Source of the DNA: Candidatus Saccharibacteria bacterium RIFCSPHIGHO2_12_FULL_47_16b
GTDB taxonomy: Bacteria > Patescibacteriota > Saccharimonadia > Saccharimonadales > UBA10212
Assembly (NCBI GenBank): GCA_001790525.1
Contig: MGCU01000023.1
Coordinates: 5,659-69,658 of the forward strand
Direction: 5' to 3'
Length of the DNA: 64,000 nucleotides
This document shows positions 23,612 through 58,985 of the stretch, one piece after another (within the stretch, counting starts at the first letter, position 1; every line of letters starts with the position of its first letter). Both the position numbers and the translations under genes were made by a program. Below the pieces are notes generated by a model. The model was not told where the DNA came from. It made no database searches and saw only the letters and a program-made list of their open reading frames with translations.

Positions 23612-23731
23612 CAGTGTCGCTCCTTTCAGTCGCTTCCAAGCTCGAAGTTCTAAACACTAGGGTTTGAAATTTAGAATTTAGAATTTGAAATTTGTTTATG
23701 ATTTCGGGTTTAGTATTCAGGGTTTTCATCT
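23612..23731 (-). repeat. Family-1 AT-rich repeat spacer upstream of rplK (TTCTAAA / TTTGAAATTTAGAATTTAGAATTTGAAATTTG)
   Basis: Tandem and inverted ATTTAGAA/TTCTAAAT motifs. Conserved AGCGACTGAAAGGAGCG leader next to the start codon. Confidence 0.55.
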
Positions 23732-24274
23732 TCACACTCGCTTTACCTGCAGGCCATCGAGCTCAACCGGCGTTTCCCGGCCGAACATATTAACTAGTAC
23801 CTTAAGTTTACCTTTCTGGGCGTCAATTTCATTGATAGCACCGTCAAAGCCTTTAAAAGGCCCGTCAATGATGTTAACCACTTCGCCAACTTGGAAATCA
23901 AACTTATGCTTAGGTTCTTCCCGGCCCATCCGCTTCATGATTTTTTCAATTTCATCTTCACCTAGAGGCGTCGGTTCAGTGCCGGTTCCAACAAAACCGG
24001 TAACGTTTGGTGTGTTGCGAACAATGTACCAAGCATCTTCGGATAGCTTCATCTCAACCAGGACATAACCTTGAAAGATGCGCTTTTCGACAACCTTTCG
24101 CTTACCGTTTTTAATCTCAATCATTTTCTCTTTTGGTACTAACACTTGGAAAATCTTATCGCCCATATCAAGCGATTCGGCCCGCTGGCGAATGCTCTCC
24201 GCCACCTTTTCTTCGTATCCAGAATAAGTGTGGATAGCATACCATTGCTTACTTGAATCGTATCGTTTATTCAC
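23732..24274 (-). CDS. nusG: transcription antiterminator NusG
   Basis: NGN domain (WYAIHTYSGYE) plus KOW domain (GPFKGFDGAI). Confidence 0.9.
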   Translation of the reverse strand: MNKRYDSSKQWYAIHTYSGYEEKVAESIRQRAESLDMGDKIFQVLVPKEKMIEIKNGKRKVVEKRIFQGYVLVEMKLSEDAWYIVRNTPNVTGFVGTGTEPTPLGEDEIEKIMKRMGREEPKHKFDFQVGEVVNIIDGPFKGFDGAINEIDAQKGKLKVLVNMFGRETPVELDGLQVKRV

Positions 24275-24716: not shown

Positions 24717-24827
24717 TCGTCTCTCCTTTACCGCAAAAAATCCTTAGATATTTTATATGAGCAATAAAATAACCTACCTTAAATGGTAGGCCTTCACTGT
24801 CAATAGTACCAAAAATTGTTGCTTTGT

Positions 24828-25538
24828 TCAATAGTTGCTAATGGGTCTCAAGGCTGGCCCGATGCGTCGAAGTTGCTTACGAAAAGCTTGTGTATTTGGT
24901 TCCAAACTCTCCATTAACTGCCAAAAATTGGGGTTGTGACTCATATGTTTAGTGTGGGCCAGTTCATGCAGGATTACATAATCCATTAGTTCGTCTGGCA
25001 GTTGCACCAAGAAAAGACTAAGTGAAATGTTGCCACTGGCTGAACAACTACCCCACCGGGATGTCATTTTACGGATTCTTAATTTATTGAATTTTAAGTT
25101 GGTAATTTTAGATAATCTATCAACACGATTTGGCAGGATGTCGTGAGCCTGCATTTTGAGACTGGCTTCTGCTGCCAGCTGCAGTTTTTTTTGCAGTTCC
25201 CTTGAATTCCAAGCCAAGACTGAAGTGACTATTATTTGATTAGCTTCAACCTTTATAACCGTCCGACCGGCTTCTCGTTGCTCAAATTTGACTTTAGCTA
25301 ACCGACCGATCCTGTCGCCCGGTTTGATGACAACAGTTTTGACCTTACTTTTTTGTCGCATAATCCAATCCGAGTGTTTAACAGCAAACCGCTCGGCAGT
25401 TCTAAACGACGTCCAGCGAGGTAGGTTTACTCTTATAGTACCGTTGGCTAAAACGGAAATCCGAATGTTACGCATACCAGTGCGTTTTGCTAGCAGGACT
25501 GGCCCAATCTCAGCTATTTCTATTTCTTTTTTAGGCAT
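24828..25538 (-). CDS. YgjP/DUF45-family predicted zinc metallohydrolase
   Basis: WGSCS...ISLS and HELAH(x5)H motifs typical of the DUF45/M48-like family. Confidence 0.65.
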   Translation of the reverse strand: MPKKEIEIAEIGPVLLAKRTGMRNIRISVLANGTIRVNLPRWTSFRTAERFAVKHSDWIMRQKSKVKTVVIKPGDRIGRLAKVKFEQREAGRTVIKVEANQIIVTSVLAWNSRELQKKLQLAAEASLKMQAHDILPNRVDRLSKITNLKFNKLRIRKMTSRWGSCSASGNISLSLFLVQLPDELMDYVILHELAHTKHMSHNPNFWQLMESLEPNTQAFRKQLRRIGPALRPISNY

Positions 25539-26868: not shown

Positions 26869-27930
26869 TTATTTTATCAAACCTAGCAAACTGATGGTTT
26901 TTTCAATAGTTGCTATGGCGTCTAAAATGCTCTCGGCTCGGATGTTTTTGGCACCTGCGGCCTGTTTATGCCCTCCTCCACCTAATTTAGCGGCAATCTG
27001 TGAAACATCAACTCCGCCACTAACTGACCTAAAAGAAGCCGAATATGAAATTGGCTCGCTTAAAAGCTCTGGATAAACTACAAATCCCCAAAAATTGTTA
27101 TCTAGATTTCGAAGATATTGGTTAGTAAAAATATCACAGCCGGCTTTGAGGTCCATATCCGGTTTGACATCCGATTGCCAGTCTTTGGCAAATTGATCGT
27201 CAATAAAGCTGTAGGTATAGCCTTTACCGTTATCGGTTGCATTTTCAAGTAGGTGGGCTAAGACAACCAGCTCATCTTTAGTAAATCGGTTTAATCGAAA
27301 TTCGAGTTGTTCAATGCTGGCTCCGGCCTCAATTAACTGGCTAACGATTCGGAAGGTGTTTTTATAATCCGGATTATCGTATTTAAAGCGGCTGGTGTCT
27401 CTTAAAATCCCAAGCAGGGCCGTCTTGGCATAACCTTCAGGCTTTTGGAAGTCTAACTGCTCGAAGCAAAGTTCATAAATTTGTTGAGCCGTAGACGATT
27501 TGCCTTCGTTGATATAAATGTCGCCCTGGAAAGAACCGTCATCAGGATGATGATCGATAACAGCTACTTTTGACTTCAAATGCTCGTGAATTAACTTAGA
27601 AAGTTCGTCGGTTTTATTTCTAGAGACTCGGGCTAGTGAATTTCCATCGACGATAACAACTAAATCTGGCTTAAAATCGGAAGCGGCTTCAAAGACCGGT
27701 GCAAATTTAATTTCGCTATAACCACCCAAAAAACTTAGATCTTGAGAGGTATTTTCTTCAAGCACCATTTGGATTTGCTTATCCGGAAAATTTGCCTGCA
27801 ACGTCCTACCCATCAACAAGACCGAACAAACCGCATCCGGATCCGGCGATATATGTGAAGTTACCAAAATTCGGTTAGCTGCCTTAACTAAACTTTGAAA
27901 TTGTTGAGTCAAAATGGCCCCTGCCACCAA
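26869..27930 (-). CDS. DHH/DHHA1 phosphoesterase (second NrnA-like paralog)
   Basis: DHH (VIDHHPDD) and GGGGH motifs. Confidence 0.7.
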   Translation of the reverse strand: MVAGAILTQQFQSLVKAANRILVTSHISPDPDAVCSVLLMGRTLQANFPDKQIQMVLEENTSQDLSFLGGYSEIKFAPVFEAASDFKPDLVVIVDGNSLARVSRNKTDELSKLIHEHLKSKVAVIDHHPDDGSFQGDIYINEGKSSTAQQIYELCFEQLDFQKPEGYAKTALLGILRDTSRFKYDNPDYKNTFRIVSQLIEAGASIEQLEFRLNRFTKDELVVLAHLLENATDNGKGYTYSFIDDQFAKDWQSDVKPDMDLKAGCDIFTNQYLRNLDNNFWGFVVYPELLSEPISYSASFRSVSGGVDVSQIAAKLGGGGHKQAAGAKNIRAESILDAIATIEKTISLLGLIK

Positions 27931-35560: not shown

Positions 35561-36027
35561 GAACGGACCTTAGCCTTGGCTTTAGTTGGCGTCTTGGCTT
35601 TTTTAGCAGTTATGTCAGCGGCTTTCTCAGCTTTTGACTTGCCGGGTGAAGCTGTCTGTTCTTGTTTGGCCGGCTTGATTTTTCTTAAGTCATCGACAAA
35701 TTTGACCTCTGCAAGTTGGGTAGCGTCGCCTCGACGTAAAGCGCTTTTACTAATACGGAAATAACCACTATTTCGAGCGGTCAACTTTGGCGTTAACTCC
35801 TCAACCAGTTTATGGGCGGCTTCTTTGCTAGCCAGAGCTTGGATAACCTGACGCCGGCTAGCTAAGTTGGTCGTTTTAGCTTTGGTGATTAGTTTTTCGG
35901 TATAGCTAACCACGGCTTTGGCTTTTGGCAAACTGGTCTTTAACGATTCGTTTAATATTAAGGAGTCAGCTAAAGACTTTATCAGGGCTCGTCGTTGGTC
36001 ACGTTGACGGTGAAACTTCACATACAC
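35557..36027 (-). CDS. rplQ: 50S ribosomal protein L17 with Lys/Ala-rich C-terminal tail
   Basis: L17 core plus tail KPAKQEQTASPGKSKAEKAADITAKKAKTPTKAKAKVRS. Confidence 0.85.
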   Translation of the reverse strand: MYVKFHRQRDQRRALIKSLADSLILNESLKTSLPKAKAVVSYTEKLITKAKTTNLASRRQVIQALASKEAAHKLVEELTPKLTARNSGYFRISKSALRRGDATQLAEVKFVDDLRKIKPAKQEQTASPGKSKAEKAADITAKKAKTPTKAKAKVRS

Positions 36028-36184
36028 CTCCGGTGCTCGGTTTTCAGTTTACCGTTTACAGTCTTCAGTAAGTTGACAGTTTTCAATTTACAGTTATTCA
36101 GTGTTGCTACATTGATCATTGATAACTGATTGTTCATTGTGAATTGTGAATTGTAAATTGTAAATTGGAATGACGCAGTCATGA
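36028..36184 (-). repeat. Family-2 intergenic module between rpoA and rplQ
   Basis: GAATGACGCAGTCATGACTAG palindrome spanning the rpoA stop. (GAATTGT)/(AAATTGT) and CATTGA tandems. CACCTCCGGTGCTC SD hairpin next to the rplQ start. Confidence 0.6.
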
Positions 36185-37126
36185 CTAGAGCTCCAGGCTA
36201 GCTAGTTTCTCCTTAACCTCTTCCAGGGCCTTATTGCCAAAACCTTTTAGGTCACGCAGTTCGGCTTCGCTCAAAGATATTAAGTCCTTAATGGTATGAA
36301 TGTCATTGTTGATTAAGGCATTGGTGGTTCTGGCACTAAGGTTAAGATCTTCGATGGTAGTCATTAGTTCGGCCGGCTCTTCGCCCTCGGCGCTGACCTC
36401 GCTTATCTCTTCCGGCAAAATTGAACCAGCTTCGACGCGAGTTTGACCCGCTAAAGCCGTGTACTGGTTAACTAAAATGGCAGCGGCTTCTTCAAATGCT
36501 TCACGAGGCGTAATTGTGCCGTCTGTATTGATGGTGATAAGTAATTTATCGAGATCAGTCATTTGGCCGACACGGGTATTTTCCACCTTATAGCGAACCC
36601 TTAAGACCGGCGAGAATAGGGCGTCCATCAATATTAGATCGGTTGCCTTTTTGGTTGAGCCTTGTTCATCAAGCACGCGATAGCCGCGGCCGGCCTCAAC
36701 CATAATCTCGGCATTGAAAGTAGCTTTAGCATCGTCGATAGTGCAAATTAAATGGTCTGGGTTAACTACTTCTACGTCAGCGTTAAGTCGAATATCTTTG
36801 GCAGTTACTTTAGACTTGCCCTTTTTGGAAATTTTTAGGGTTTGCGGTTCATTGCTAAATACTTTAAATCTAATGCCTTTTAGGTTCATCATAATCGCTA
36901 CAACGTCTTCTTTAATGCCAGCTATGGTCGAGAATTCGTGGCTAACACCGTCAATTCTAAAGCCAGTCACGGCTGCACCGGAAATGCTCGATAGCAATAC
37001 TCGACGCAGGCTATTGCCAAGCGTCATACCATAGCCGGGGTGCAAAGGCTCGATGGCAAAGGTTGAACTATACGGTCCATGGTCATCGATTTTGGCTAGT
37101 GATGGGTTGTGAATATATTTAGTCAT
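36185..37126 (-). CDS. rpoA: DNA-directed RNA polymerase subunit alpha
   Basis: Alpha NTD plus CTD (HhH, KGFGNKALEEVKEKL). Confidence 0.9.
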   Translation of the reverse strand: MTKYIHNPSLAKIDDHGPYSSTFAIEPLHPGYGMTLGNSLRRVLLSSISGAAVTGFRIDGVSHEFSTIAGIKEDVVAIMMNLKGIRFKVFSNEPQTLKISKKGKSKVTAKDIRLNADVEVVNPDHLICTIDDAKATFNAEIMVEAGRGYRVLDEQGSTKKATDLILMDALFSPVLRVRYKVENTRVGQMTDLDKLLITINTDGTITPREAFEEAAAILVNQYTALAGQTRVEAGSILPEEISEVSAEGEEPAELMTTIEDLNLSARTTNALINNDIHTIKDLISLSEAELRDLKGFGNKALEEVKEKLASLEL

Positions 37127-37141
37127 ATATAAATCTCCTTG

Positions 37142-37771
37142 TTAACGTGAGTAAAACTCAATAATTAGTTGCTCTTTAATATCTGGCTCAGCGTCATCGC
37201 GGCTTGGTTGACCGCTAAGCTTTATCTTGAAGTTCTTTCTATCAACTTTCAGCCAAGCTGGAGTGGCTGAGGGTGCTGGCGAAAGCTCATCTATATTTTT
37301 GAAGTAACTGGTTGTTTTAGCAGAATCACGGAGTACTAACTCGTCACTAATGTCTAATCTGATTGATGGTATGTCTGTCCGGCGGCCATTTAACATAAAG
37401 TGGCCGTGGCTGACTAGTTGACGGGCTGCCGGCCTGGAAACAGCCAAACCAGCTCGATAGATAACATTGTCCAGCCGTCTTTCTAAAAATTCCAGTAGTT
37501 TTATGCCGGATTCACCTTTACTACGCAATGCCTCGTTTACCAACTTCACAAACTGTTTTTCTAATAACCCATAAAGCCGTTTAACTTTTTGCTTTTCCCG
37601 CAGTTGAAGGGCATATTGGCTGGGTTTTCTGGGCCGGCCACCACCACCTGGCGTCGTACCGGGAGCGGTCGTTCTTTTGACCAAGACCTTATGGGCTTTT
37701 GGATGAAGTGCATAGCCCTCGCGGCGAGACCGTTTTACGATGGAACCTAGGTCCCTAGCCATCAGGCGCAC
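37142..37771 (-). CDS. rpsD: 30S ribosomal protein S4
   Basis: S4 family with S4 RNA-binding domain. Confidence 0.9.
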   Translation of the reverse strand: MRLMARDLGSIVKRSRREGYALHPKAHKVLVKRTTAPGTTPGGGGRPRKPSQYALQLREKQKVKRLYGLLEKQFVKLVNEALRSKGESGIKLLEFLERRLDNVIYRAGLAVSRPAARQLVSHGHFMLNGRRTDIPSIRLDISDELVLRDSAKTTSYFKNIDELSPAPSATPAWLKVDRKNFKIKLSGQPSRDDAEPDIKEQLIIEFYSR

Positions 37772-37865
37772 ATCCGGTGCTCAAAATTCAAAAACCAAAT
37801 ACCAAACATCAGAGGGTTTGAACTTTGAAATTTGAAAATTGAAGTTTGGAATGACGCAGTCATGA
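37772..37865 (-). repeat. Intergenic module between rpsK and rpsD (GAATGACGCAGTCATGACTAG palindrome plus TTTGAAATTTGAAAATTGAAGTTTGG repeats plus GAGCACCGGATGTGC SD hairpin)
   Basis: Same terminal modules as at 36028-36184, with a family-1-like AT-rich core. Confidence 0.55.
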
Positions 37866-38321
37866 CTAGTTCCTTTTAGCCTTTCTTGGTCGAGTGCCGC
37901 CGTGCGGAATGCCAGTCTTATCTCTTATGGTTTCGACGGTTAGTCTCTGATTAATCAATGTCCGGATGGCCGAATCACGGCCCAAGCCAATGCCAGTGAC
38001 GATAACATCTACTTTGGCAATACCGAATGTTTTGGCGTCAGTCAGCGCTTTTTCAGTAGCCACTTGGGCGGCATAAGCTGTTCCTTTTTTCGAACCCCTA
38101 AAGCCGCTGCTGCCGGCACTAGCTGAAGCCAAAACGTTGCCTTGCTCATCGGTTACAGACACAACTGTGTTATTAAAACTTGCCAAAATATGAACTTGAC
38201 CGCGACTAACTTGACGCTTTAGCTTTTTGCGCTTGGTTACGGTCTTTGGTTTTTCGTCAGTAATTTCTGCCGTTTCAACCGGTTTTACTTGTTCACTGCT
38301 TTGACCTTCTTTAACTACCAT
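37866..38321 (-). CDS. rpsK: 30S ribosomal protein S11 (N-terminally extended)
   Basis: S11 core HILASFNNT...; ~25-aa N-terminal extension. Confidence 0.9.
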   Translation of the reverse strand: MVVKEGQSSEQVKPVETAEITDEKPKTVTKRKKLKRQVSRGQVHILASFNNTVVSVTDEQGNVLASASAGSSGFRGSKKGTAYAAQVATEKALTDAKTFGIAKVDVIVTGIGLGRDSAIRTLINQRLTVETIRDKTGIPHGGTRPRKAKRN

Positions 38322-38441: not shown

Positions 38442-38828
38442 TTATGTTTTACTCGGTGCTTTCCTAGCGGTTCCACCTACTGTTATACGCTTACCGCGAC
38501 GAGTCCGGGCGTTAGTTCTGGTGCGCTGGCCACGGGTTGGTAAATTAGCAGCGTGGCGTAAGCCACGATAAGCATTGATGTCCTTCAAGCGCTTAATATT
38601 AGCGGTTACTGTTTTATGGAGCTCACCTTCAATGGTGTAATCGCTAGTGATAACATCTTGCAGTTTTGAGATTTCGCTATCTGTCAACTTTTTTACCCTA
38701 ATAGTTGGTTCAATGTTGGCTTTATCAAGGATTTGATGGCTAATCTTTGGACCAATGCCGTAGATGTAAGTTAAAGCTACTTGAACTTGTTTTTCGTCTG
38801 GAATTACCACACCGGCTAGTCGAGCCAT
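38442..38828 (-). CDS. rpsM: 30S ribosomal protein S13
   Basis: S13 family (MARLAGVVIPDEKQVQVALTYIYGIG). Confidence 0.9.
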   Translation of the reverse strand: MARLAGVVIPDEKQVQVALTYIYGIGPKISHQILDKANIEPTIRVKKLTDSEISKLQDVITSDYTIEGELHKTVTANIKRLKDINAYRGLRHAANLPTRGQRTRTNARTRRGKRITVGGTARKAPSKT

Positions 38829-38965
38829 CAGACGTTCTCTCCGGTCGCTTCAAACCCTAAGTTCGAAGTTCTAAACTCTAAAGTTTGGTAATTGGAATTT
38901 AGGATTTGGAAATTGTTTAGAAATTCGGGTTTAGAAATTAGGTATTGGAATGTCGAAGGCATGAC
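38829..38965 (-). repeat. Family-1 AT-rich repeat spacer between rpmJ and rpsM
   Basis: TTCTAAACTCTAAAGTTTGG ... ATTTGGAAATTGTTTAGAAATTCGGGTTTAGAAATTAGG, an inverted TCTAAA/TTTAGA arrangement. Confidence 0.55.
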
Positions 38966-42454: not shown

Positions 42455-43012
42455 TTACGCCGCTGTTGCCTCCTTGCCGCTCTTACCACTTTTACGGATA
42501 ATCTGTTCACCCTCGTAGCTTATTCCCTTGCCTTTGTATGGTTCAGGCTTTTTAAAGGCTCGAATCTCGGCCGCCACCTGACCCACTTTTTGCTTGTCGG
42601 CGCCGCTGACGGTAATAATATTTTGATCAACAGATAGACTTACACCCTCCGGAATTTTATAAATAACATCATGTGATAAGCCTAGGTTCATTTTAAGGTC
42701 AGTGCCTGATAATTGGCTACGGTAACCAACTCCACTTAATTCAAGTTTTATGTCATAACCTTGGCTGACGCCGGCAATCATATTTTTAAGTAGCGAACGC
42801 ATGAGACCGTGCTTGGCTCTGGTAATCGCTGTCTCATTTTGGCGATTAACTTGCAATTGATTATCCTTAACCGTTACTGTTATGTCGGCCAGCTTGGCTT
42901 GCTTAAGTTTACCTTTTAGTCCTTCAATATAAATAAAGTCTTTATCTACGATTACAGACACGCCAGGCGGTACAGCAATTGGTTGTTTACCGATACGACT
43001 CACAGAAGGCAC
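42455..43012 (-). CDS. rplF: 50S ribosomal protein L6
   Basis: Two L6 alpha/beta repeat domains. Confidence 0.9.
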   Translation of the reverse strand: MPSVSRIGKQPIAVPPGVSVIVDKDFIYIEGLKGKLKQAKLADITVTVKDNQLQVNRQNETAITRAKHGLMRSLLKNMIAGVSQGYDIKLELSGVGYRSQLSGTDLKMNLGLSHDVIYKIPEGVSLSVDQNIITVSGADKQKVGQVAAEIRAFKKPEPYKGKGISYEGEQIIRKSGKSGKEATAA

Positions 43013-43241
43013 CTCCGGTGCTCAATTATCAATTCACAATTATCCCCACACCAAAAACTTGAAGCTCCATAATCTGATTGCAGACTACTCCGCTCAGGTT
43101 TTGGTGCAGGGTAAGCAATGCTCAATGAATTATCAATTAGCAATTTGCAACTACTGGCTGCAGTTTGTTTGATAAATGACAAATGAGAAATTAATGGTAA
43201 ATGGTAAATGGTAAATGGTAAATGGAATGATGGAGTCATGA
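43013..43241 (-). repeat. Family-2 intergenic module between rpsH and rplF, carrying a nested ~70-nt hairpin mini-element
   Basis: The rc matches the 6662-6831 element module by module (AAATGGTAAATGG tandems, CATTTGTCATTTATCAAACAAACTGCA, CAATTATCAATTCACAATTATC, GCACCGGAGGTGC) with an extra insert at 43044-43111. Confidence 0.7.
43044..43111. repeat. ~70-nt hairpin mini-element, copy 2 (inverted relative to copies 1 and 3)
   Basis: CCCCACACCAAAAAC...CATAATCTGATTGCAGACTACTCCGCTCAGG...GTTTTGGTGCAGGG. The core is the rc of GAGCGGAGTAGTCTGCAATCAGATTATG. Confidence 0.55.
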
Positions 43242-43631
43242 CTAGTAGACCTCGCAAATTAATTCGCCGCCAATACCCTTTTTTCTAGCAGCCAAGCCGC
43301 TCATGATGCCTTGGGAAGTTGATAAAACTACTATACCGCGGCCAGCTTTGATGCTTGGAATCTCCGAGGCTTTAACATAATGGCGCCGGCCTGGGCGACT
43401 GACTCGTTTAAGTTCTGTTATAAGCGGCGACTGATCTAGTCCGTAAAGGAGAATTTGCAACTCTTTTCGATCATCCACTTGATTTGCCTTAACACTCGCC
43501 AAAAAGCCACTTTGTACTAAAACTTGAGCTACATCGTGCTTGATTTTTGAATGTGGCAAATTAACTTCATTTTTGCCGGTTGCCAAGGCGTTGCGAATTC
43601 GTGCTAACATATCGGCGATTGGATCAGTCAT
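43242..43631 (-). CDS. rpsH: 30S ribosomal protein S8
   Basis: S8 family. The stop lies in the GAATGATGGAGTCATGACTAG palindrome. Confidence 0.9.
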   Translation of the reverse strand: MTDPIADMLARIRNALATGKNEVNLPHSKIKHDVAQVLVQSGFLASVKANQVDDRKELQILLYGLDQSPLITELKRVSRPGRRHYVKASEIPSIKAGRGIVVLSTSQGIMSGLAARKKGIGGELICEVY

Positions 43632-46253: not shown

Positions 46254-46675
46254 TAGGCCACCTCTTTAGCCAGAAATTCAGTTTGGACCGGTAATTTATG
46301 GCCAGCTAGGCGCATTGCCTCACGGGCGATCTCTTCGCTAACGCCATCCATTTCAAACAAAACCGTACCGGGTTTAACCTTGGCCACGAAAAACTCTGGG
46401 TTACCCTTACCGCTGCCCATCTTGACGTCTTGTGGTTTACGAGTAACTGGCGTATGCGGAAAGATACGAATCCAAATTGAGCCGCCGCGCTTGACATAGC
46501 GAGTCATGGCTTGTCTGGCAGACTCGATTTGACTGGCGCTTATCCTATCGGAGTCCAAACTGATAAGGCCGTATCGGCCATAAGCTAGCTCATTTATCGA
46601 AGTGGCTCGGCCGCCATGAATACGCCCTTTCCTTACTTTTCGGTACTTGGAACGTGATGGCATTAGCATACGCAC
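46253..46675 (-). CDS. rplP: 50S ribosomal protein L16
   Basis: L16 family (RGGRATSINELAYGRYGL). Confidence 0.9.
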   Translation of the reverse strand: MRMLMPSRSKYRKVRKGRIHGGRATSINELAYGRYGLISLDSDRISASQIESARQAMTRYVKRGGSIWIRIFPHTPVTRKPQDVKMGSGKGNPEFFVAKVKPGTVLFEMDGVSEEIAREAMRLAGHKLPVQTEFLAKEVA

Positions 46676-46832
46676 CTCCGGTGCTCAATTACCAATTCAC
46701 AATTTACATTTTTCAATAAGTTTTCATTTATCAATTTATAAATAGAAAATAAGTCTGCAGCCAGTTTGTTAAATGACAAATGCAAAATAAATGGTAAATG
46801 GTTAATGGAAAATGGAAAATGGAATGACGCAG
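46676..46832 (-). repeat. Family-2 intergenic module between rpsC and rplP
   Basis: GCACCTCCGGTGCTCAATTACCAATTCACAATTTAC..., (AAATGG)n tandems, and the GAATGACGCAGTCACGA palindrome variant at the rpsC TGA stop. Confidence 0.6.
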
Positions 46833-47465
46833 TCACGATAACTCCCCCCGATATATCCAAACCTTCACGCCAATTAGTCCAGCGCCTGGGTAAAGGGCGC
46901 TGGCTTTAGCAAAATCAACATCAGCTCTAATAGTATGAAGCGGCACGCTACCTTGAACTTCCTTCTCGCGTCGGCTCATCTCGGTACCGCCCAGTCGGCC
47001 GGAGACTTCAATCCGAACTCCTTTAGCTCCGGCGCGCATGGATGATGCCGCTGCAGCTTTGACAGCTCGCCGAAACATAATTCTTTTTTCAAGCTGATGA
47101 GCAATATTCTCAGCCACCAATTTGGCCTGCAATTCCGGTCGTTTAATCTCTTCGATGTTGACCCTAACCGGAACTTTAAAGATCTTTTCAATCGCCTGCT
47201 TTAGTTCAGTTGCGCCGGTACCGCCTCGACCTATTACTACACCAGCTTTTGCGGTCTGTAGGGTGACAGTTACAAGATTGGGCGAGCGCTCAATGTCAAT
47301 TTTACTAACAGCCGCCCGCGAGCCAAGTTTAACTTCAATCAGCTTGCGAGCAGCTAGGTCTTGCCGCAAAAACTGGGCATAATCCTTTTTAGAGGCAAAC
47401 CATTTACTGCGCCAGTCTTTAGTGAGCGGTAAACGCATGTTGATTGGGTTAACCTTCTGCCCCAT
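46833..47465 (-). CDS. rpsC: 30S ribosomal protein S3
   Basis: KH domain plus S3 C-terminal domain. Confidence 0.9.
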   Translation of the reverse strand: MGQKVNPINMRLPLTKDWRSKWFASKKDYAQFLRQDLAARKLIEVKLGSRAAVSKIDIERSPNLVTVTLQTAKAGVVIGRGGTGATELKQAIEKIFKVPVRVNIEEIKRPELQAKLVAENIAHQLEKRIMFRRAVKAAAASSMRAGAKGVRIEVSGRLGGTEMSRREKEVQGSVPLHTIRADVDFAKASALYPGAGLIGVKVWIYRGELS

Positions 47466-47586
47466 CAGACGCTCCTCCCAGTCGCTTCAAGCTCTAAACT
47501 CGAAGCTCGAAACCCTAAAATTCGGAATTTAGAACTTAGTGTTTGGGATTTGTTTAGAAATTCGGGTTTAGAAATTAGAGTTTCCA
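47466..47586 (-). repeat. Family-1 AT-rich repeat spacer between rplV and rpsC
   Basis: CTCTAAACTCGAAGCTCGAAACCCTAAAATTCGG ... ATTTGTTTAGAAATTCGGGTTTAGAAATTAG. Conserved leader AGCGACTGGGAGGAGCG next to the ATG. Confidence 0.55.
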
Positions 47587-47967
47587 TTATTTAACTTTCT
47601 TTGTATGTTCGGACGATGGCTTTTTAACAACTCTCTTTTCTCCGTCAACTAACACTTTGATGTGGCTAGTTTTATGCTGGTATGGCAAAGCTCGGCCTCG
47701 GGCCGCTGGTCGGTATCGTTTAAGACGTAAACCAGCGCCAACTGTTATTTGGCTAATGTATAGGCTATCCGGCTTGTAGTTGTGATCGTGCACGGCATTG
47801 GCTCTAGCGCTAACAATAACTTTTTTTATGGTAACGGCCGCTCGCCGAGGCGTATGCTCTAGGATGGTAATAGCGTCATTGACAGATCGGCCACGTACCA
47901 AAGAGGCCACTAGTGCGGCCTTGCGCGGACTAACTCGAGCGCTACGATATTCGGCTTTAACTGGCAT
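47587..47967 (-). CDS. rplV: 50S ribosomal protein L22
   Basis: L22 family. Confidence 0.85.
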
Positions 47968-49559: not shown

Positions 49560-50215
49560 TTACTAGCCTCCCTAACGGTGGTTTTTTGACCAAGCCAAGC
49601 ATGGATAATTTCCACGGCTTTTTTGGATAAAACAATACTGTCTGCATTTAGCACATCAAAGACTGTCAAATAATTGGCGGCTACCGCTTGGACGTTGTCC
49701 AAATTCCTGGTAGCTCTATCAACTAACTCGTCCTTTTGTGAAACTACCAATAAGACCGAGCCTTTGGTGCCGATTTTCTGTAGCAGACTAATGGTTGGCT
49801 TAACTTGGCCGCTGGAACAATCGAAAGTTTCGATAACGCTAATTTTGTCGGAATTTGCGGCTAGGCTTAGAGCTTGACGCAACGCTTGGCGTTTAGTCTT
49901 GAGACCGATTTTACGCTGATAATTTTCGTAGCCAGTTGGACCAAAGGCCACACCGCCACCCCGCCAAATCGGGTTACGTCTGGAACCAAAACGCGCCTGT
50001 CCAGTACCCTTTTGGCGCCACGGTTTACGGCCGCCGCCGCGGACTTCGCCCCGTCTTTTAGTTTTAGCCAAGTTTGTTCTACCGCTCGATTGATAAGCCA
50101 GATAAGCATCCTGTAAAAGCTGATGGTTAATGTCGGTCTGACCAAATATAGACTTATCAAGCTTGGCTTCCGTCTCGGCTTTAGTGCCAGTTTTAGTATA
50201 GGTCGGTACCGCCAT
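49556..50215 (-). CDS. rplD: 50S ribosomal protein L4
   Basis: L4 family. Confidence 0.9.
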
Positions 50216-50336
50216 CAGGCGCTCCTTCCAGTTGCTTCAAGCTCTAAGTTCGAAGTTCTAAGCTCTAAATTTTGGTATTTAAAACTTCGAGTTTGGTATT
50301 TGTTTAGAGTTTCGAGTTTAGGAATTAAAGCTTTCT
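50216..50336 (-). repeat. Family-1 AT-rich repeat spacer between rplC and rplD
   Basis: AAGCTCTAAGTTCGAAGTTCTAAGCTCTAAATTTTGG ... TTTGTTTAGAGTTTCGAGTTTAGGAATTAAAG. Confidence 0.55.
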
Positions 50337-50951
50337 TCATTTGGCCTCCTTCAATAAAACCAGGCCCTTTCTTGGACCTGGAATTGCACCGGCTACGCCA
50401 ATGAGGTTGTGCTTTGGATCAACAATGGCGATTTTGAGGTTTTTGACTGTCACTTGCTGGCCGCCCATTCGGCCAGCCATTTTTTTACCGGGGAAAATCC
50501 GCTGTGGAAACATCGAACCGATTGAGCCTGGGCGTCGGTAACTGCGGCCACCATGAGTTTTACGGCCACGGGCAAAGCCATGTCTTTTAATAACACCGGC
50601 AAAGCCTTTACCTTTGTTAACAGCCGTTGCATCTACTAAATCGCCAACCGAAAAAATATCGGCGGCCAGTTGGTCGCCGATATTAAGTTCTAGTTCAGCT
50701 TCGTCCTTAATCCGAAACTCGCGCATAATCCTGGCATTAGCCTTGGACTTTATAAGATGGCCCTCTTGGGCTCTGCCGATTTTTTTAGATTGTTCAGCGC
50801 CTAGCTGTATTGCCTGATAGCCATCTGTATCACTAGATTTGATTTGAGTAACTATATTCGGAGCGGCGGTCAGTAAGGTCACTGCGGTAGCTGCGCCCTT
50901 GTCGGAGAGCGTTGTCGTCATACCCAACTTTCTGGTAATTAGTGCTTTCAT
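50337..50951 (-). CDS. rplC: 50S ribosomal protein L3
   Basis: L3 family. Confidence 0.9.
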   Translation of the reverse strand: MKALITRKLGMTTTLSDKGAATAVTLLTAAPNIVTQIKSSDTDGYQAIQLGAEQSKKIGRAQEGHLIKSKANARIMREFRIKDEAELELNIGDQLAADIFSVGDLVDATAVNKGKGFAGVIKRHGFARGRKTHGGRSYRRPGSIGSMFPQRIFPGKKMAGRMGGQQVTVKNLKIAIVDPKHNLIGVAGAIPGPRKGLVLLKEAK

Positions 50952-52607: not shown

Positions 52608-52856
52608 TTATCGTGGTAAGGTGACCCCGGCCTGTTTAGCGGCTTCCAGTAGTTCGGCATTAAGCCTTAGAAGTTTAGCCTCCACACTAACTTTGGCGAA
52701 GTTTTTGTCAGTTATCACGCTACTTTTCATCTGTTTCAACATCGCATATATCTCTTTAACATCATTCTCTATAGCTTCGAGCTTGCCTTCGAGCGGCTTC
52801 AGCTCTTCGCGCATAATTGAACGAATTTCGCTTAAATCAGTTGCGGTCAAACTCAT
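52608..52856 (-). CDS. hypothetical coiled-coil protein (82 aa)
   Basis: Heptad-like [25 protein letters not shown]. Positioned for translational coupling with rpsJ. Confidence 0.4.
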
Positions 52857-52924: not shown

Positions 52925-53230
52925 TTAGTGTCCAATCCTTATTACTTGACCGGGTTTTAGGTCGACTTTACGTTGAGTAGCCAGCATAAAGTTCTTCACG
53001 ATTACCTCAGCTGAGTCATCGTAAGCGATATCCTCATAGCCAACACGTTCACTCTCACTCTCCGGTGGAAAAACAACTTGTGGAGAGTTTTTTGTGTGCC
53101 AATAAACCGTAACTGAGCCATCAGCCTCCGCCATCATTGCGCCTGAGACGCCAGCATATGAGAAAATGCGTCGGAATGGGTCCTCGTCCGTTATGCGATA
53201 TGGAGCTCCGTGGAATTCGACTTTGCTCAT
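52925..53230 (-). CDS. hypothetical protein (101 aa) immediately downstream of tuf
   Basis: Starts 9 nt after the tuf stop. No recognisable motif. Confidence 0.4.
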   Translation of the reverse strand: MSKVEFHGAPYRITDEDPFRRIFSYAGVSGAMMAEADGSVTVYWHTKNSPQVVFPPESESERVGYEDIAYDDSAEVIVKNFMLATQRKVDLKPGQVIRIGH

Positions 53231-53239
53231 TAAATTAGT

Positions 53240-54421
53240 CTATTTTACGATTTTGGTAACGACGCCGGCGCCGACAGTTCGGCCGCCCTCGCGAATGGCA
53301 AACCGCAGACCTTGCTCCATGGCGATTGGTGCTTGCAATTTTACTTTGAAGGTAACAGTGTCGCCGGGCATGACCATCTCTTTATCGGCTGGTAGTTCAA
53401 CTTCGCCGGTTACGTCTGTCGTGCGGAAGTAAAACTGCGGTTTGTAGCCTTTGAAAAACGGCGTGTGACGACCGCCTTCTTCTTTGGTCAGAATGTAAAC
53501 TTCGCTGTCAAATTCAGTGTGCGGCGTAATTGAACCGGGCTTAGCTAGAACCTGGCCGCGCTCGATGTCATCGCGTTCGATTCCGCGCAGCAGTACACCA
53601 ACGTTGTCGCCAGCTTGACCTTGGTCAAGATTCTTCTTGAACATTTCAACACCGGTTACAACCACTTTCTTGGTTGGGCGAATACCGACGATCTCAACTT
53701 CCTCGTTGACTTTGACTACGCCGGTTTCCACACGACCGGTGGCAACTGTACCACGGCCTTTGATAGAGAACACATCTTCGACGGCTAACATAAAGGGTTT
53801 ATCAAGATCGCGCTTGGGCTCGGGAATGTAGTCATCCATCGCCTTAAGCAACTCCATTACAGCCTCTTCATTGGCGGCGTCACCCTCTAGGGCTTTAGTG
53901 GCCGAACCCTTAATGATTGGGCAATCCCTGTCAAATTCGTATTTTTTAAGCAGATCGCGCACGTCTTCTTCGACTAAATCAACTAGTTCAGGGTCGGCCA
54001 AGTCCATTTTGTTTAAGAAAACCAGAATACTTGGCACACCAACCTGTTTGGCCAGCAGCACATGCTCACGAGTTTGGGGCATCGGACCATCAGCCGCGCT
54101 AACAACTAAGATAGCGCCATCAATTTGGGCGGCACCGGTAATCATGTTTTTGATGTAGTCGGCGTGGCCGGGCATGTCAACGTGAGCATAGTGACGTTTT
54201 TCGGTCTCATACTCTTGATGAGATGTGGCAATGGTAATACCTCGGGCTTTTTCTTCTGGAGCGTTATCAATCTGTTCATAAGAAACCGGCTTATTGATAT
54301 CACTTGGTAGCTTTTTAGATAAGACGCTAGTAATAGCGGCTGTTAATGTAGTTTTGCCATGATCAACGTGGCCAATAGTGCCAACGTTAAGATGGGTCTT
54401 AGTCCGATCAAAATCTGCCAT
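53240..54421 (-). CDS. tuf: elongation factor Tu
   Basis: G1 [10 protein letters not shown]3 DMPGHADY, G4 NKMD. 393 aa. Confidence 0.95.
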
Positions 54422-54639
54422 TTTCTCTCCCTTTGCCCACCTAAACTTTTTTAAAGTTTGCGCGGGTTTTCATTATTAGATTAATTATTAAATGCATGAG
54501 TTGTTATCTTACCATGTGGCCGCCGTCCCGCCAGGGCGGGATTGCACCTGAACATGAGAATACTAATCACCCCCATGCGGATATGCGAGAATTATAGATA
54601 AACCTAAACGCTTTGTAAAGTGTAATTAGACAGGAATTC

Positions 54640-55638
54640 TTACGAAATTTCGTCCGGCTTTCTACCAGGCGTGCTATAATCACCGACCGGATGGATTATT
54701 GCGTATGGACCTAAGTCGAAATCTCCAAGCGAATTACTCATTGAGTCTCCAGGACCAAGGTCATAATGATCGACTACTCCTCTGTTGCGCGCGTAATTTA
54801 CACACCCAGTTAGATTAGTTGGTTTGGTCGTTTGCAGGACTAAGTTATTGATTATCGTCTTAGCGCGTCGCATGGGCCTAGCCGTCCTTGTCGCAATAAT
54901 TTCTAAAGTGCTATCTTTGACGCCACCTTCCCTTAGGATTTCGTCCATCATGTAAGCCAATTTTTCTTCAGTAGCTTTTACAAATTTACCGTGAGGCGGA
55001 AACGGCAAGTTATCCAACGCAATCACCCTTCTGACACCAGGAATATCCTCAAGCGCTGCCTTTAATGCAACTTTTTCCTCATTGACATATGTCACCATAG
55101 TTTTAAAAGGTGTGTGTTCACCTCCTAGATGCGAATTCTCAAATTCTTTTACAGTTTTTTTAATAGTGTGTTTCAATCTTTTTGGAGGTGCACTCCGATC
55201 GTGTATGACAACAAAACCCCCGCCCTTTCCGCCAGCTTCTTCTACCTGTGAGCGACCTCTTTCATACGCAGTTATAGCCGCATCACGAAGTGAAATCGCT
55301 CCACCGATAGCAGCCGCCGTGAACTCCCCGGAACTAACGCCTATAAGGTAATCAGTAAAAATCCCACATTCATTGAGTGCTTTGGCGCGGGCGTATCCAA
55401 CTCCGACATTGACCGCTTGGATCACCGCAGGGTCGGTAACGGCTATTTCGCTTCGGCAAACATCAATCACATCTACGCCCGTAGCTATTCCAATTTCTTC
55501 ATAGATTCTGTGTGTTTCCGAGCCCTCTGATAAAAGATCTTGGCCGTCTTTAAAGCTTTTTATGCCTTGGCCTGGAGCATAAAAGGCTATTCTGCGCTTA
55601 ACGGGCGGAGAAGTGAACTCCGCCACTCTACTTGACAT
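54640..55638 (-). CDS. FabD-like acyltransferase-domain protein (malonyl-CoA:ACP transacylase superfamily, GHSxG with His replaced by Val)
   Basis: N-terminal oxyanion-hole motif FYAPGQG and nucleophile elbow GVSSGE (GxSxG), then ...AAAIGG, as in FabD. Confidence 0.55.
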   Translation of the reverse strand: MSSRVAEFTSPPVKRRIAFYAPGQGIKSFKDGQDLLSEGSETHRIYEEIGIATGVDVIDVCRSEIAVTDPAVIQAVNVGVGYARAKALNECGIFTDYLIGVSSGEFTAAAIGGAISLRDAAITAYERGRSQVEEAGGKGGGFVVIHDRSAPPKRLKHTIKKTVKEFENSHLGGEHTPFKTMVTYVNEEKVALKAALEDIPGVRRVIALDNLPFPPHGKFVKATEEKLAYMMDEILREGGVKDSTLEIIATRTARPMRRAKTIINNLVLQTTKPTNLTGCVNYARNRGVVDHYDLGPGDSMSNSLGDFDLGPYAIIHPVGDYSTPGRKPDEIS

Positions 55639-55653
55639 ACTTTTATTATAGCA

Positions 55654-56424
55654 TTATTTGCCAGATTTGGCAAAATCGGCTGCCACATTTCTGACTGGAT
55701 CAGTTAGTGAGGGCAAAATCAAGCTACACTTACGAAAGCTTGCGATTTTCTGAGCCCGCTGGTGGTGAGGGGTTAAGGGGTCTACAACTATTAGATTGGT
55801 TTCTTCTGGCTGAGTTTGATTTAAATTAACGTAGCCTACCGCTAATACAACGTGCTCTGGTAAGTCCATGCTTAATACGCTGCCTCTTGATAACTCTGTC
55901 AGAGCAACTCTAGCCAAATCTTCCCCGGCGAATTGAACATCGTAATAAGAAAAGTCAGCATCAGGAACGATTTCTTCAAAGTGTTCGCTAATCGCCAAAT
56001 TGCCAATTTTTACAACTTGATTTGATAGGATCAGTAGTTCAGCGTCGTTAAAGTATGACCTCAGCTCATCAGTCAAACTAGCATTAACGCGCTCGGCCGT
56101 TACCTGACTTATCTGCCCTTGCCAAAGCATGGCATTAAGTTGATTTGTGTTAACGCAGCTATGTATATCATTATTCTTGCTGTGTTGAGCTAATGGTGTT
56201 ATTTCGGCTGCCGGCTCTATATAATGCGTGACCGATAGATCAGTCATGCCTAATTCGTGTGAGCGGTATAGGAATAAAAGATAAGCCGCCCTTGATCTTT
56301 CCTCTTCCCAAATTTGACCGAGGGTCCTTGTAACAAGTGTCTCAGGACCAATCGTAATAGCTGGCTTGGGACCTACAATAATTGGCGCCTTTCGTCCAGC
56401 GGGCCTAAAACGAGGGTCTTCCAT
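55654..56424 (-). CDS. hypothetical protein with Cys...His...Asp pattern (possible NAT/BtrH/transglutaminase-like acyltransferase fold); C-terminal 13 aa copied from EF-G
   Basis: HSCVNTNQLNAML, HVVLAVGYVN and NLIVVDP spacing resembles arylamine N-acetyltransferase triads. C-terminus ...VRNVAADFAKSGK versus EF-G ...[15 protein letters not shown]. Confidence 0.45.
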   Translation of the reverse strand: MEDPRFRPAGRKAPIIVGPKPAITIGPETLVTRTLGQIWEEERSRAAYLLFLYRSHELGMTDLSVTHYIEPAAEITPLAQHSKNNDIHSCVNTNQLNAMLWQGQISQVTAERVNASLTDELRSYFNDAELLILSNQVVKIGNLAISEHFEEIVPDADFSYYDVQFAGEDLARVALTELSRGSVLSMDLPEHVVLAVGYVNLNQTQPEETNLIVVDPLTPHHQRAQKIASFRKCSLILPSLTDPVRNVAADFAKSGK

Positions 56425-56439
56425 AAGAGATACTATAAA

Positions 56440-58527
56440 CTATTTGCCGGATTTGGCAATTAGGCCGGCTGCCACATTGGCCGGCACATCGGCATAGTGG
56501 TCCAGTTCCATCGATGACGAAGCCCTGCCCTGAGTCATGCTCCTAAGATTGGTGACATAGCCGAACATCTCGCCCAGCGGCGCAAAAGCCGTGATCTCTT
56601 TGATTCCAGGTGATAGATCTACCATCGATTCAATACGACCACGTTTAGAGTTAAGATCGCCAATCACATCACCCATAAACCCCTCAGGCGTGACAACCAC
56701 GATTTTCATAATTGGTTCCAGCAAAACCGGTGAGGCTTTTTTGACAGCATCCTGGAGGGCGGCCGAGCCGGCGATTTTAAAGGCTACTTCGCTCGAATCA
56801 ACGTCGTGATAGGAGCCATCATATAGCTCAACTTTAACGTCAACTACCGGATAACCGGCGATCACGCCATTAGCCATAGCTTCCTCGATACCAGATTTTA
56901 TGGCCGGAATAAACTCGCTCGGGATGGAGCCGCCTTTAATGCTGTTAATGAACTCAAAGCCCTTGCCAGCTTCATTTTGGAAAAGCCGTAGCCAACAGTG
57001 GCCGTACTGACCACGACCACCGGTTTGACGAATGTATTTACCTTCGGCCTCAACGCCGTCTTTACGAATGGTTTCGCGGTAAGCAACCTGCGGCTCACCG
57101 ACATTAGCATCAACTGTAAACTCGCGTTTCATTCGATCGGCGATTATTTCAAGGTGCAGCTCGCCCATTCCAGAAATGATTGTCTGACCGGTTTCATGGT
57201 CGATTTTCATCCTAAAAGTTGGATCTTCTTCAGCCAGCCGTTGCAAGGCTTGGCTCATTTTTTCCTGATCGGCCTTAGTTTTAGGTTCAATGGCAATACT
57301 GACTGGTGGATCGGGAAAAGTGATACTTTCTAAAACAATCGGGTGCGTTGGATCACAAAGCGTATTGCCGGTTGTAGTACCCTTAAGACCAACTATAGCG
57401 GCAATGTCGCCGGCTTCAATTTCGCTAACATCTTCGCGCTTGTTAGCGTGTAACCTAACAATTCGGCCAATTCTCTCTTTTTCTCCTGTGGAACTGTTGA
57501 GGATGTAGCTACCGGCTTCTACCTTTCCGGAATAGGCTCTAAAGAAGGCCAGTTTGCCAACAAAGGGGTCGGTGGCAATCTTGAAGGCTAAAGCTGCAAA
57601 TGGTTCGGAGGCGTCCGGCTTACGCTCAATTTTATCGCCGTTTTTAGGGTTTACTCCCCAAGTCGAGCCACGGTCCAACGGGCTAGGTAGAAAATCAGTT
57701 ACAGCGTCGAGTAATTTCTCAACGATGACGCCCCGGCCATCCCCGCCAGAAACGGCAAAAAACTTACCGGTCAACACCGCCGTGCGGATAGCCTTACGAA
57801 TTTCATCTTCCGAGAGTCCCTCTTCGCCAACCTCCAAATACTTTTCAAGCATTTGCTCATCTTCAGCCACAGCATTCTCAACCAAAAGCGAACGGTATTT
57901 TTTGACTTGATCGGTCATATCGGCTGGTATCTCGCCTTCTATCAAGTTCTTGTCATGGTACTCCTTATAGATGTAAGCCTTCATGGTAATCAGATCGACC
58001 ACGCCATTGACATTTTGTTCAAAGCCAATTGGTAGATGAATCGGAAAGGCTCGTTTGGAAAGTCGGTGATGGATACTGTCCAAGCTTTTATAAAAATCGC
58101 CGCCGGTCTGGTTGATTTTGTTAATAAAACAAAGCCGCGGCACGTTATATCTATCGGCCTGGCGCCAAACGGTCTCGGACTGTGATTCGACGCCCATCTT
58201 GCCATCAAAGACAACCACCGCGCCGTCTAATACTCGTAAGCTGCGCTCGACCTCAACCGTAAAGTCAATGTGGCCGGGCGTATCAATGATGTTAATTTTT
58301 TTATCTTTCCAAAAACAAGTCACGGCGGCAGCTGTAATGGTAATACCGCGCTCTTTTTCTTGGGCCATCCAGTCAGTTGTGGTATCCCCGGTATGGACTT
58401 CACCGATTTTATGCTTTAAGCCGGTTCGATAAAGGATAGCCTCGGTGGTGGTCGTCTTGCCCGCATCAATGTGAGCAATAATGCCGATGTTCCGTAGATT
58501 CTCTAATGGGTATTTTTTATCTACCAT
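56440..58527 (-). CDS. fusA: elongation factor G
   Basis: G1 [21 protein letters not shown]. 695 aa, five-domain EF-G. Confidence 0.95.
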
Positions 58528-58532
58528 ACTAG

Positions 58533-58985
58533 TTATATCTCTATAGTTCTATCGATTATTTTACGGCTCATCCTTGAAGCTGCTTTTTGCACTGCTTCGT
58601 CATGTCGCGTCTTACGCTCCTCAATCTCAGCAACAGGTTGTTTTGATAAATTTTTTCTCTCTAATAACATTTGTACGGCAAGGCATTTTTTTGGTCTTTC
58701 GCCGATAGCCGGCATAAGGCAACCTTGCATGGCTTCAGCAACTTCTTCTGGAGTTGCATCTTTAGAAGATAATCCTAGATCTATTCGAGATATAAGTCTT
58801 CGCGAGCTCAGAGCGACTATCGCCAATCGTTCTGTGTTTGATGAGAAACCTTGAGCTATACTCTGCCACGAACCGGATTGCTTCATATACTTATCGATTT
58901 CATAGCCTAGCGGAGAATTTCCCAGTCTCCTTCTGAAGACACATCGGGCACAAGGCTCCACCATAATTCTTTCGGCGCCTATCAT
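58533..58985 (-). CDS. hypothetical protein (150 aa) between rpsG and fusA
   Basis: Fills an unusually long (559 nt) rpsG-fusA spacer. N-terminal CxRCV and later C residues. No assignable family. Confidence 0.35.

Follow-up and report, generated by a model that had tools for sequence, protein, structure and literature searches.

The 3′ end of fusA and its second copy

The str operon region of Candidatus Saccharibacteria bacterium RIFCSPHIGHO2_12_FULL_47_16b was analysed in a stretch of 64,000 nucleotides (nt) of contig MGCU01000023.1 (assembly GCA_001790525.1, positions 5,659 to 69,658; “the window”), in which the 3′ end of fusA, the gene for elongation factor EF-G, is present twice. The gene itself is intact (minus strand, 56440-58527; 695 amino acids (aa), identified from the list of open reading frames (ORFs) and by its Pfam domains). 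It is followed by ORF256, a called reading frame of 771 nt (minus strand, 55654-56424), by ORF332, which encodes a FabD-like protein (minus strand, 54640-55638; ORF call and family scores), and by tuf, the gene for EF-Tu (minus strand, 53240-54421; ORF list and Pfam domains), so that the minus strand reads rpoC, rpsL, rpsG, ORF150, fusA, ORF256, ORF332, tuf, ORF101, ORF82, rpsJ, and onward. The order fusA-ORF256-ORF332 is reproduced in 11 contigs found by one search and 13 found by another, which stem from independent ENA, JGI, Logan and NCBI assemblies; the window comes from a groundwater genome, and contigs identical to its locus come from Rifle aquifer assemblies. Another copy of the locus, L145, in an NCBI metagenome-assembled genome (MAG; GCA_001790615.1, MGDA01000014.1), has fusA split into frames of 482 and 145 aa and ORF256 into frames of 100 and 140 aa; these split calls are probably assembly errors or gaps of that MAG.

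On the minus strand, fusA ends in ...GCC AAT GTG GCA GCC GGC CTA ATT GCC AAA TCC GGC AAA TAG and ORF256 in ...AGA AAT GTG GCA GCC GAT TTT GCC AAA TCT GGC AAA TAA. The first copy of the repeat (56441-56478, minus strand) is the real fusA tail, comprising about the 12 last codons and the first two bases of the stop codon. The second (55655-55689, minus strand) is a displaced tail, which reads N-V-A-A-D-F-A-K-S-G-K plus stop and now forms the C-terminus of ORF256. Local alignment of 56478-56441 with 55689-55655 yields 32 matches, 3 mismatches and 3 gap columns (84% of 38 columns), with a score of 43 as compared to 16.2 ± 2.1 (maximum 24) in 500 shuffles. The original prediction, made from the sequence alone, that the tail occurs twice with a match of about 85% and a 3-nt indel is thus borne out by the alignment. 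The opening 13 nt of the repeat, AATGTGGCAGCCG, which code for N V A A, are identical at 13 of 13 positions between the two copies, and the repeat is therefore wider than the AKSGK codons, to which the similarity might have been limited. The 17-mer TTTGCCRGATTTGGCAA occurs at just two sites in the 64-kb window, both of them repeat copies, where 0.03 are expected; it is therefore not a common terminal motif within the window, the other explanation that had been put up for testing. The second copy is a genuine remnant of the fusA 3′ end.

Downstream of the stop codons, the similarity between the copies is weaker. Both spacers are exactly 15 nt long and end at an ATG: the fusA-ORF256 spacer, TTTATAGTATCTCTT (56425-56439, minus strand), and the ORF256-ORF332 spacer, TGCTATAATAAAAGT (55639-55653, minus strand), each contain a -10-like hexamer, TATAGT and TATAAT, respectively. 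The original prediction gave the peptide tails correctly; its quoted strings start a few bases later than had been indicated (about 56432 and about 55644).

ORF256 has no match in Pfam, NCBIfam, PHROGs or PADLOC. Homologues were sought exhaustively among 1.8 billion cluster representatives and by two word-indexed searches of 5.8 billion clusters. Only three relatives emerged, P0002 (51-53% identity), P0012 and P0013 (both about 40%), a profile search gave the same three, and a protein scan of metagenome contigs added no further ORF256 loci. All four known genes of the family sit directly 3′ of fusA, in Saccharibacteria. The four proteins share the invariant motifs HSCxNT..MLWQGQISQ, EHxVLxVGY and DP, and the residues C90, H191 and D215 of ORF256 are invariant. 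A structure model of low confidence (predicted local distance difference test score of 54) retrieved non-significant papain-fold matches in a fold search (best E = 0.03). ORF256 is a real gene, possibly encoding a Cys-His enzyme such as a thiol hydrolase or a transferase. That it could be a degenerate partial copy of fusA was rejected, as BLASTP against EF-G finds nothing past the tail (E = 3.5).

The fusA remnant, read in frame, supplies the last 11 codons of ORF256. Family members natively end about seven residues past DP[VI]R (P0002, P0012), and in the window the remnant takes the place of these residues: because the native last seven or so codons are missing, the frame runs through the remnant to the remnant’s own stop. 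The EF-G-like ending ...NVAADFAKSGK* is probably an incidental by-product of this read-through, which would explain a misleading feature for annotation, namely a hypothetical protein with the C-terminus of EF-G. Across lineages, the ORF256-family proteins are 39-52% identical. These identities are out of step with those of EF-G, as L019 and L142 (loci of relatives are numbered with the prefix L) share 89% identity in EF-G but only 39% in the ORF256-family protein, a mismatch for which either transfer or fast evolution could account.

A variable slot between fusA and tuf

The interval from the fusA stop codon to the conserved promoter of tuf is a variable slot, the gene content of which differs by lineage in this Saccharibacteria clade. 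On the tuf side, a promoter-like site was found by consensus scan at 54591-54619 (minus strand; CTTTACAAA...TCTATAAT, TTTACA-17-TATAAT, 11 of 12 consensus matches), followed by a leader of about 165 nt with a Shine-Dalgarno (SD) sequence. This element, CTTTACAAA..TCTATAAT, recurs with a partly conserved 5′ leader in 7-8 related loci; as tuf has its own conserved promoter and leader, these mark the right border of the slot. Element and leader together span 54422-54619 (minus strand) in the window, where the leader is longer than in relatives and contains a hairpin rich in GC, CCCGCCCTGGCGGG.

ORF332, which comes second in the window’s slot, is a divergent FabD-like acyltransferase with a GVSSGE motif (GVSSGEFT in the family). 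Its scores lie under the family cut-offs of TIGR00128 (70.2 vs. 260.9 bits) and of Pfam Acyl_transf_1 (27.7 vs. 32.7). An assignment as FabD proper (malonyl-CoA:ACP transacylase) was rejected on these scores, and the protein is FabD-like in fold and motif only. ORF332 has eight homologues (nine family members in all) and, in all loci in which the gene that follows can be seen, the family lies just upstream of tuf. Its loci include L011, L014, L015, L016 and L018, and ORF510 and a GT4 glycosyltransferase gene sometimes precede it. A profile search of genome contigs for the FabD-like family gave no new locus, only the L014 contig that had already been found.

Single-occupant alleles of both kinds exist. 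In L016, fusA is followed after 16 nt by the FabD-like gene, and the contig ends before tuf; the first 10 nt of the window’s fusA-ORF256 spacer TTTATAGTATCTCTT are identical to the fusA-FabD-like spacer of this relative. In L142, the order is fusA, 38 nt, ORF258 (the ORF256-family gene) and tuf, and there is no remnant. The window combines fusA, ORF256, the remnant, the FabD-like gene and tuf. In L010, fusA is followed by ORF251, which retains a native stop (...DDIT*), then by 36 nt and an 18-codon fusA-tail remnant in another frame, YVNISTNVAEGIIAKSGK, at the contig end. In L019, ORF262 begins 1 nt past fusA and ends in frame in ...HVYIDEAVAKSAK (fusA there ends in ...DHYADVPNNVAEAIIAKNAK), a degraded remnant that reads ...EAVAKSAK* as compared to ...EAIIAKNAK* of its own fusA; 16 nt, ORF128, ORF97 and tuf follow. 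L015 has an unrelated gene and then ATTGCCAAATCT, 28 nt before the FabD-like ATG. The slot holds ORF510, the GT4 glycosyltransferase gene and the FabD-like gene in L011 and L014, a canonical-looking FabD in L041, and ORF112 in L099.

Seven fusA-bearing loci were scanned for duplicates of the tail, with shuffles scoring about 17-18. Significant duplicates were found only in the window (43) and in L010 (45), i.e., at no locus other than those with an ORF256-family gene stacked on a second gene; the fusA ends of L011, L041, L099 and L016 have no significant tail duplicate in their downstream DNA. A DNA-pattern scan of metagenomes for the tail returned 120 mostly unrelated matches, among which fusA ends were represented only by L041, L067 and L099, none of them duplicated. 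In L011/L012, ATTATTGCTAATTAGGGTAAAG lies about 100 nt ahead of the FabD-like gene and might be a degraded remnant, but it is too weak to count. The junction on the side of the ORF256-family gene differs among the window, L010 and L019: in the window, native codon -7 is joined to fusA codon -12, and in L010 the joint lies past the native stop and leads to fusA codon -18 or an earlier one. In two of the four cases (window, L019), the remnant continues the frame of the upstream gene; in L010 and L015 it is either out of frame or not translated. The tail codons match within each genome, as AAT GTG GCA GCC occurs twice in the window and AAC GTy GCC GAA twice in L010. Among the available contigs carrying ORF332, no allele was seen from which ORF256 had been excised, as a population polymorphism would show. 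The original claim of an insertion at the fusA 3′ end agrees with the presence of other genes at this position in relatives; the repeat is not private to this genome, as the versions in L010 and L019 show.

Further small ORFs without family matches lie elsewhere in the str/S10 region: ORF150 (58533-58985, minus strand) between rpsG and fusA, and ORF101 (52925-53230, minus strand) and ORF82 (52608-52856, minus strand) between tuf and rpsJ. Relatives have other small ORFs at these positions, e.g., ORF100/ORF106 and ORF88/ORF71 in L019 and ORF61 in L011.

Promoter-like geometry of the repeated unit

The original prediction regarded the repeat as an insertion footprint and overlooked a putative near-consensus promoter 6-7 nt before the next start codon. 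The site before ORF256 (minus strand, consensus scan) consists of a -35 hexamer, TTGCCA (56459-56454), a 16-nt spacing and a -10 hexamer, TATAGT (56437-56432), and matches the consensus at 10 of 12 positions; its -35 lies in the fusA I-A-K codons, and its -10 lies in the spacer past the stop codon, 7 nt before the ORF256 ATG (56424). The site before ORF332 (minus strand) has the same -35 hexamer (55673-55668), a spacing of 17 nt and an extended -10, TGcTATAAT (55653-55645), i.e., 11 of 12 matches plus TG; it ends 6 nt before the ORF332 ATG (55638) and shares first place in the 8.5-kb scan. Between 52 and 60.5 kb, the minus-strand sites that rank first to third directly precede ORF332, tuf and ORF256. 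In the whole window, sites with at least 11 of 12 matches number 4, as compared to 1.1 expected, and the ORF332 site is among them.

Neither ORF256 nor ORF332 has an SD or a GGAG-like motif upstream. A -10 hexamer (at least 5 of 6 matches) that ends 4-9 nt before the start codon was found for 11 of the 71 genes of the window, where 1.1 are expected; ORF256 and ORF332 belong to this group, as do, e.g., the genes at 2648(+), 12636(-), 14855(-), 17777(-), 28501(-), 29260(-), 33897(-) and 51655(-). Distances of 6-8 nt are the most frequent, and ten of the 11 genes lack an SD, whereas the ribosomal-protein genes of the window have clear SDs instead. This enrichment is a signature of leaderless genes, and suggests that such genes form a substantial class in this Saccharibacteria genome; a literature search on leaderless transcription in Saccharibacteria found no usable papers or transcription start site data. 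Leaderless-type promoters, flagged here as common, matter for gene calling and for the design of expression constructs in Saccharibacteria. At both copies of the repeat, the hexamers and their spacing (16 and 17 nt) are near the σ70 consensus, and a -10 located 6 or 7 nt from the start in the absence of an SD fits a leaderless mRNA. The repeated unit is thus probably a putative σ70-type promoter for a leaderless mRNA of the next gene.

The arrangement TTGCCA, 16-17 nt, TAnAnT, 6-8 nt, ATG is found in both window copies, at the fusA ends of L010 and L016 and in the L019 remnant, and in a weaker form in L015. The core TTGCCAAA is kept in four of four remnants, although in L019 and L015 the remaining tail sequence has decayed. 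In genuine fusA tails, these positions vary synonymously, with TTGCTA in L016 and L142, TCGCCA in L019 and TTACCA in L011. In L019, where ORF262 starts 1 nt past the stop, the real tail has no promoter-like site, and it is the remnant that keeps TTGCCA-17-TACAAT. Conservation of TTGCCAAA in the four remnants points to functional retention, which is suggestive but not proof.

Origin of the displaced tail

The repeat, the alternative contents of the slot, the remnants in relatives, the promoter-like geometry and its enrichment throughout the window were seen directly; from them we infer a recombination mechanism and an order of events, along with promoter activity and leaderless translation. The reading that we favour, with moderate confidence, is that the second copy is a scar of 3′-end displacement by illegitimate recombination, which has been kept as a putative leaderless promoter. 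In this clade, whichever gene is located next 3′ of fusA is devoid of an SD, and it would be expressed from a promoter with its -35, TTGCCA, in the Ile-Ala-Lys codons of fusA and its -10 box 2-4 nt past the fusA stop and 6-8 nt before the ATG, giving rise to a leaderless mRNA. The window would then represent two alternative occupants stacked on each other, an ORF256-family gene as in L142 and a FabD-like gene as in L016. In the simplest model, stacking occurred by an exchange between the slot alleles fusA-ORF256 and fusA-FabD-like, with homologous recombination within or upstream of fusA and an illegitimate joint at the opposite end. In this exchange, fusA would have retained or received an intact 3′ end, and the second tail copy would have stayed before the FabD-like gene, where it would persist because it provides this gene’s promoter. 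In the window lineage, the native last seven or so codons of ORF256 would have been lost, so that the frame runs on to the stop codon of the remnant.

Insertion or stacking by illegitimate recombination fits the alternative gene content of the slot in relatives. The features of a displacement are present, namely an intact fusA as the anchor, an orphan tail (55655-55689) past the new module, and a retained FabD-like gene, and the differing junctions are consistent with joints that are not site-specific. Since both window copies share the same lineage-specific codons, donor and recipient tracts are indistinguishable. Two further events are conceivable: a deletion of about 60 nt in an L010-like ancestor would also yield the in-frame fusion of the window, and recombination between the two copies would excise ORF256 precisely and result in an L016-like allele. 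Of the two origins named in the original prediction, illegitimate recombination fits better than site-specific integration, which is not supported; the repeat was moreover said to lie at the junction of a whole cassette, but it brackets only the 771-nt ORF256.

Several observations weigh against this reading. The window has no excess of promoter-like sites as a class (at least 10 of 12 matches: 15 sites vs. 17 expected), and the argument for a promoter therefore rests on position and conservation. The other window genes with a -10 near the start mostly lack a good -35, as judged by eye, and the -35 TTGCCA is partly dictated by the conserved Ile-Ala-Lys codons. Termination and reinitiation across the 15-nt gap could alternatively explain expression without an SD. 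The direction of change is compatible with either an insertion or a deletion between repeats. The remnant of L019 is not significant by DNA alone (20 vs. 18.4) and is recognisable by position and peptide. Remnants resemble the fusA tail of their own genome, the two copies reading NVAA in the window and NVAE in L010, so that independent recurrent events or gene conversion are needed. Finally, the comparison set is small, with four remnants (window, L010, L019, L015) and four ORF256-family genes in total.

An extension of the favoured reading, which we regard as tentative and rather unlikely, is that the ORF256-family gene and the fusA-tail promoter constitute a recombinase-free mobile unit that moves among Saccharibacteria with the highly conserved fusA 3′ end as its homology anchor. 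It is proposed because the junctions differ in three lineages, the remnants resemble their own fusA tail, and the ORF256 tree disagrees with the EF-G tree. If true, the unit might spread, e.g., by natural transformation, and each acquisition would displace the resident fusA tail. The displaced genes would stay expressed from the leaderless promoter of the tail, and accessory genes could thereby pile up in the str operon.

Among the rival explanations, the one that survives best, though we consider it unlikely as well, is that the second copy is a pure non-functional scar: a neutral leftover of a recent rearrangement or gene conversion, with a resemblance to a promoter that arises by coincidence from the Ile-Ala-Lys codons and an AT-rich spacer, and with expression of ORF256 and ORF332 by read-through and translational reinitiation. 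The 13 identical nt lie upstream of the putative -35 and are free of promoter constraint, suggesting that the copy is recent or converted; this explanation also draws on the lack of an overall enrichment of promoter-like sites and on stop-to-start gaps of just 15 nt. However, remnants persist where the ORF256 proteins are only 39-52% identical, TTGCCAAA is conserved in the diverged remnants of L019 and L015 despite the decay of the tail, and a -10 placed 6-7 nt before the ATG fits the window-wide class (11 of 71 genes).

Much less probable is an origin in situ, by which the tail and the spacer junction were duplicated locally, in tandem or by slippage, with ORF256 arising or being captured between them and no alleles being exchanged. 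This would account for the copies being most alike within each genome, but the ORF256 family spans four lineages, one of which (L142) lacks a duplicate; the family gene therefore predates the duplication or is independent of it. ORF256 also has no similarity to EF-G beyond the tail, as stated above. We give slightly less credit still to the possibility that the repeated unit acts as an RNA, by way of a TTGCC-N6-GGCAA hairpin involved in processing, termination or coupling, or as an EF-G-like peptide tag, AKSGK. The 5-bp hairpin is present in both copies, of which the first was flagged as terminator-like, and the remnant is in frame in the window and L019. But the two copies are predicted to fold differently, with just one of them beating its shuffles (z = -2.9 and -1.3), and Rfam gave no match; a known RNA family and a shared RNA structure were rejected on these results. 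The Ile-Ala...Gly-Lys codons by themselves give rise to the hairpin. In L010 and L015 the remnant is out of frame or not translated, and L142 has none.

Site-specific integration, with ORF256 as the cargo of an integrative element or cassette, the fusA 3′ end as the attachment (att) site and the two copies as attL and attR, appears very improbable. Direct repeats do flank ORF256, the target gene is intact, and ORF256-family genes always lie directly 3′ of fusA. Yet Pfam, NCBIfam, PHROGs and PADLOC yield no recombinase, transposase, phage or defence match for ORF256, ORF332, ORF150, ORF101 or ORF82, and the called genes in the 10-kb flanks of L001, L019 and L142 are only translation or transcription genes or small ORFs without matches. 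Furthermore, the insert is a single gene of 771 nt, its junction differs between the window, L010 and L019, and L142 carries the gene without a second tail copy. An integron gene cassette was likewise rejected, since there is no integrase and the sole inverted repeat of the unit is the 5-bp TTGCC/GGCAA stem, with no attC. That the similarity is due to chance, to a motif common at gene ends or to an artefact of assembly can practically be dismissed: a scan of the 71 genes did find other short gene-end repeats in the window, with scores of 48 and 41, but these belong to different intergenic repeat families, the score of the fusA tail lies far over its shuffles, its motif is confined to the two sites within the window, and an artefact is dismissed because the gene order recurs in 11-13 independently assembled contigs.

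The window contains further repeats. Families of repeated intergenic modules of 100-160 nt punctuate the ribosomal-protein operons (36101-36188, 37825-37869, 43158-43245 and 46755-46842, with further stretches at 36024-36056, 37768-37800, 43009-43041 and 46672-46704). They open right past a stop codon with a hairpin, TCATGACTGCGTCATTCC, identical at 24 of 24 positions after the genes ending at 37866 and 36185, hold 7-nt periodic repeats (TGTAAAT, GGTAAAT, AGGAAAT), and end in GAGCACCGGAG-GTG, i.e., an SD and a start codon. A second intergenic family of about 140 nt (61-79% identical; 23604-23743, 38825-38964, 47462-47601 and 50212-50351) ends in ...GAAGCGACTGRAAGGAGCG..ATG before ribosomal-protein genes. 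In addition, about 40 nt near the 3′ end of a 353-aa ORF (26869-27930, minus strand) resemble 24813-24851, the 3′ end and flank of the gene at 24828-25538 (score 41); this match could reflect a further displaced piece of a gene end or else a repeat that is unrelated.

The locus shows how accessory genes may enter one of the most conserved bacterial operons and stay expressed there, in a lineage with tiny genomes. If a promoter indeed overlaps the last fusA codons, the tail would be a portable expression module, and a displaced tail would travel with the old gene. Related arrangements are known from other systems. Integrative elements that target gene 3′ ends (tRNA, tmRNA and some protein genes) bring a replacement 3′ end. 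The window shares with them the direct repeat of a gene 3′ end and the intact target gene, but differs in the absence of a recombinase, the insert of 0.8 kb and the variable junctions. In the str operon of E. coli, secondary promoters of tufA lie inside the 3′ part of fusA, as described around 1980-1990. There as in the present proposal, a promoter within the fusA coding sequence drives the next gene independently of the main str promoter. However, the sequences are not homologous, the -10 lies past the stop codon in Saccharibacteria and the transcript would be leaderless, and the promoter would serve a variable accessory gene, tuf having a separate conserved one. The class of leaderless genes that the gene finder GeneMarkS-2 (Lomsadze et al., 2018, cited in PMC7441243) reportedly models has its -10 box about 6-8 nt before the start codon. 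The genes considered here resemble this class in having TANNNT 6-8 nt before the ATG and no SD, an arrangement enriched across the window, though the likeness is one of sequence.

The closest parallel is provided by the loci of Rhs proteins, contact-dependent inhibition (CDI) systems and effector-immunity pairs of type VI secretion systems (T6SS), for which 3′-end displacement by illegitimate recombination facilitated by homology was proposed (Kirchberger et al., 2017, PMC5361080, and Rhs work cited therein). As in these loci, a module appears to be anchored by homology in a conserved upstream gene, and the slot has different contents in different strains; the old 3′ end is pushed downstream, where it remains as an orphan before the former resident gene, and repeated events can build up arrays. 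Unlike in Rhs, CDI and T6SS loci, the anchor is the gene of a housekeeping translation factor in the str operon and not a polymorphic toxin gene, the displaced piece comprises about 12-18 codons, and only two layers are stacked. Moreover, the piece has seemingly been kept as a promoter rather than as an orphan toxin tip or immunity gene. No new mechanism is needed for the fusA tail, which is probably a tidy variant of 3′-end displacement combined with a leaderless promoter embedded in the upstream gene.

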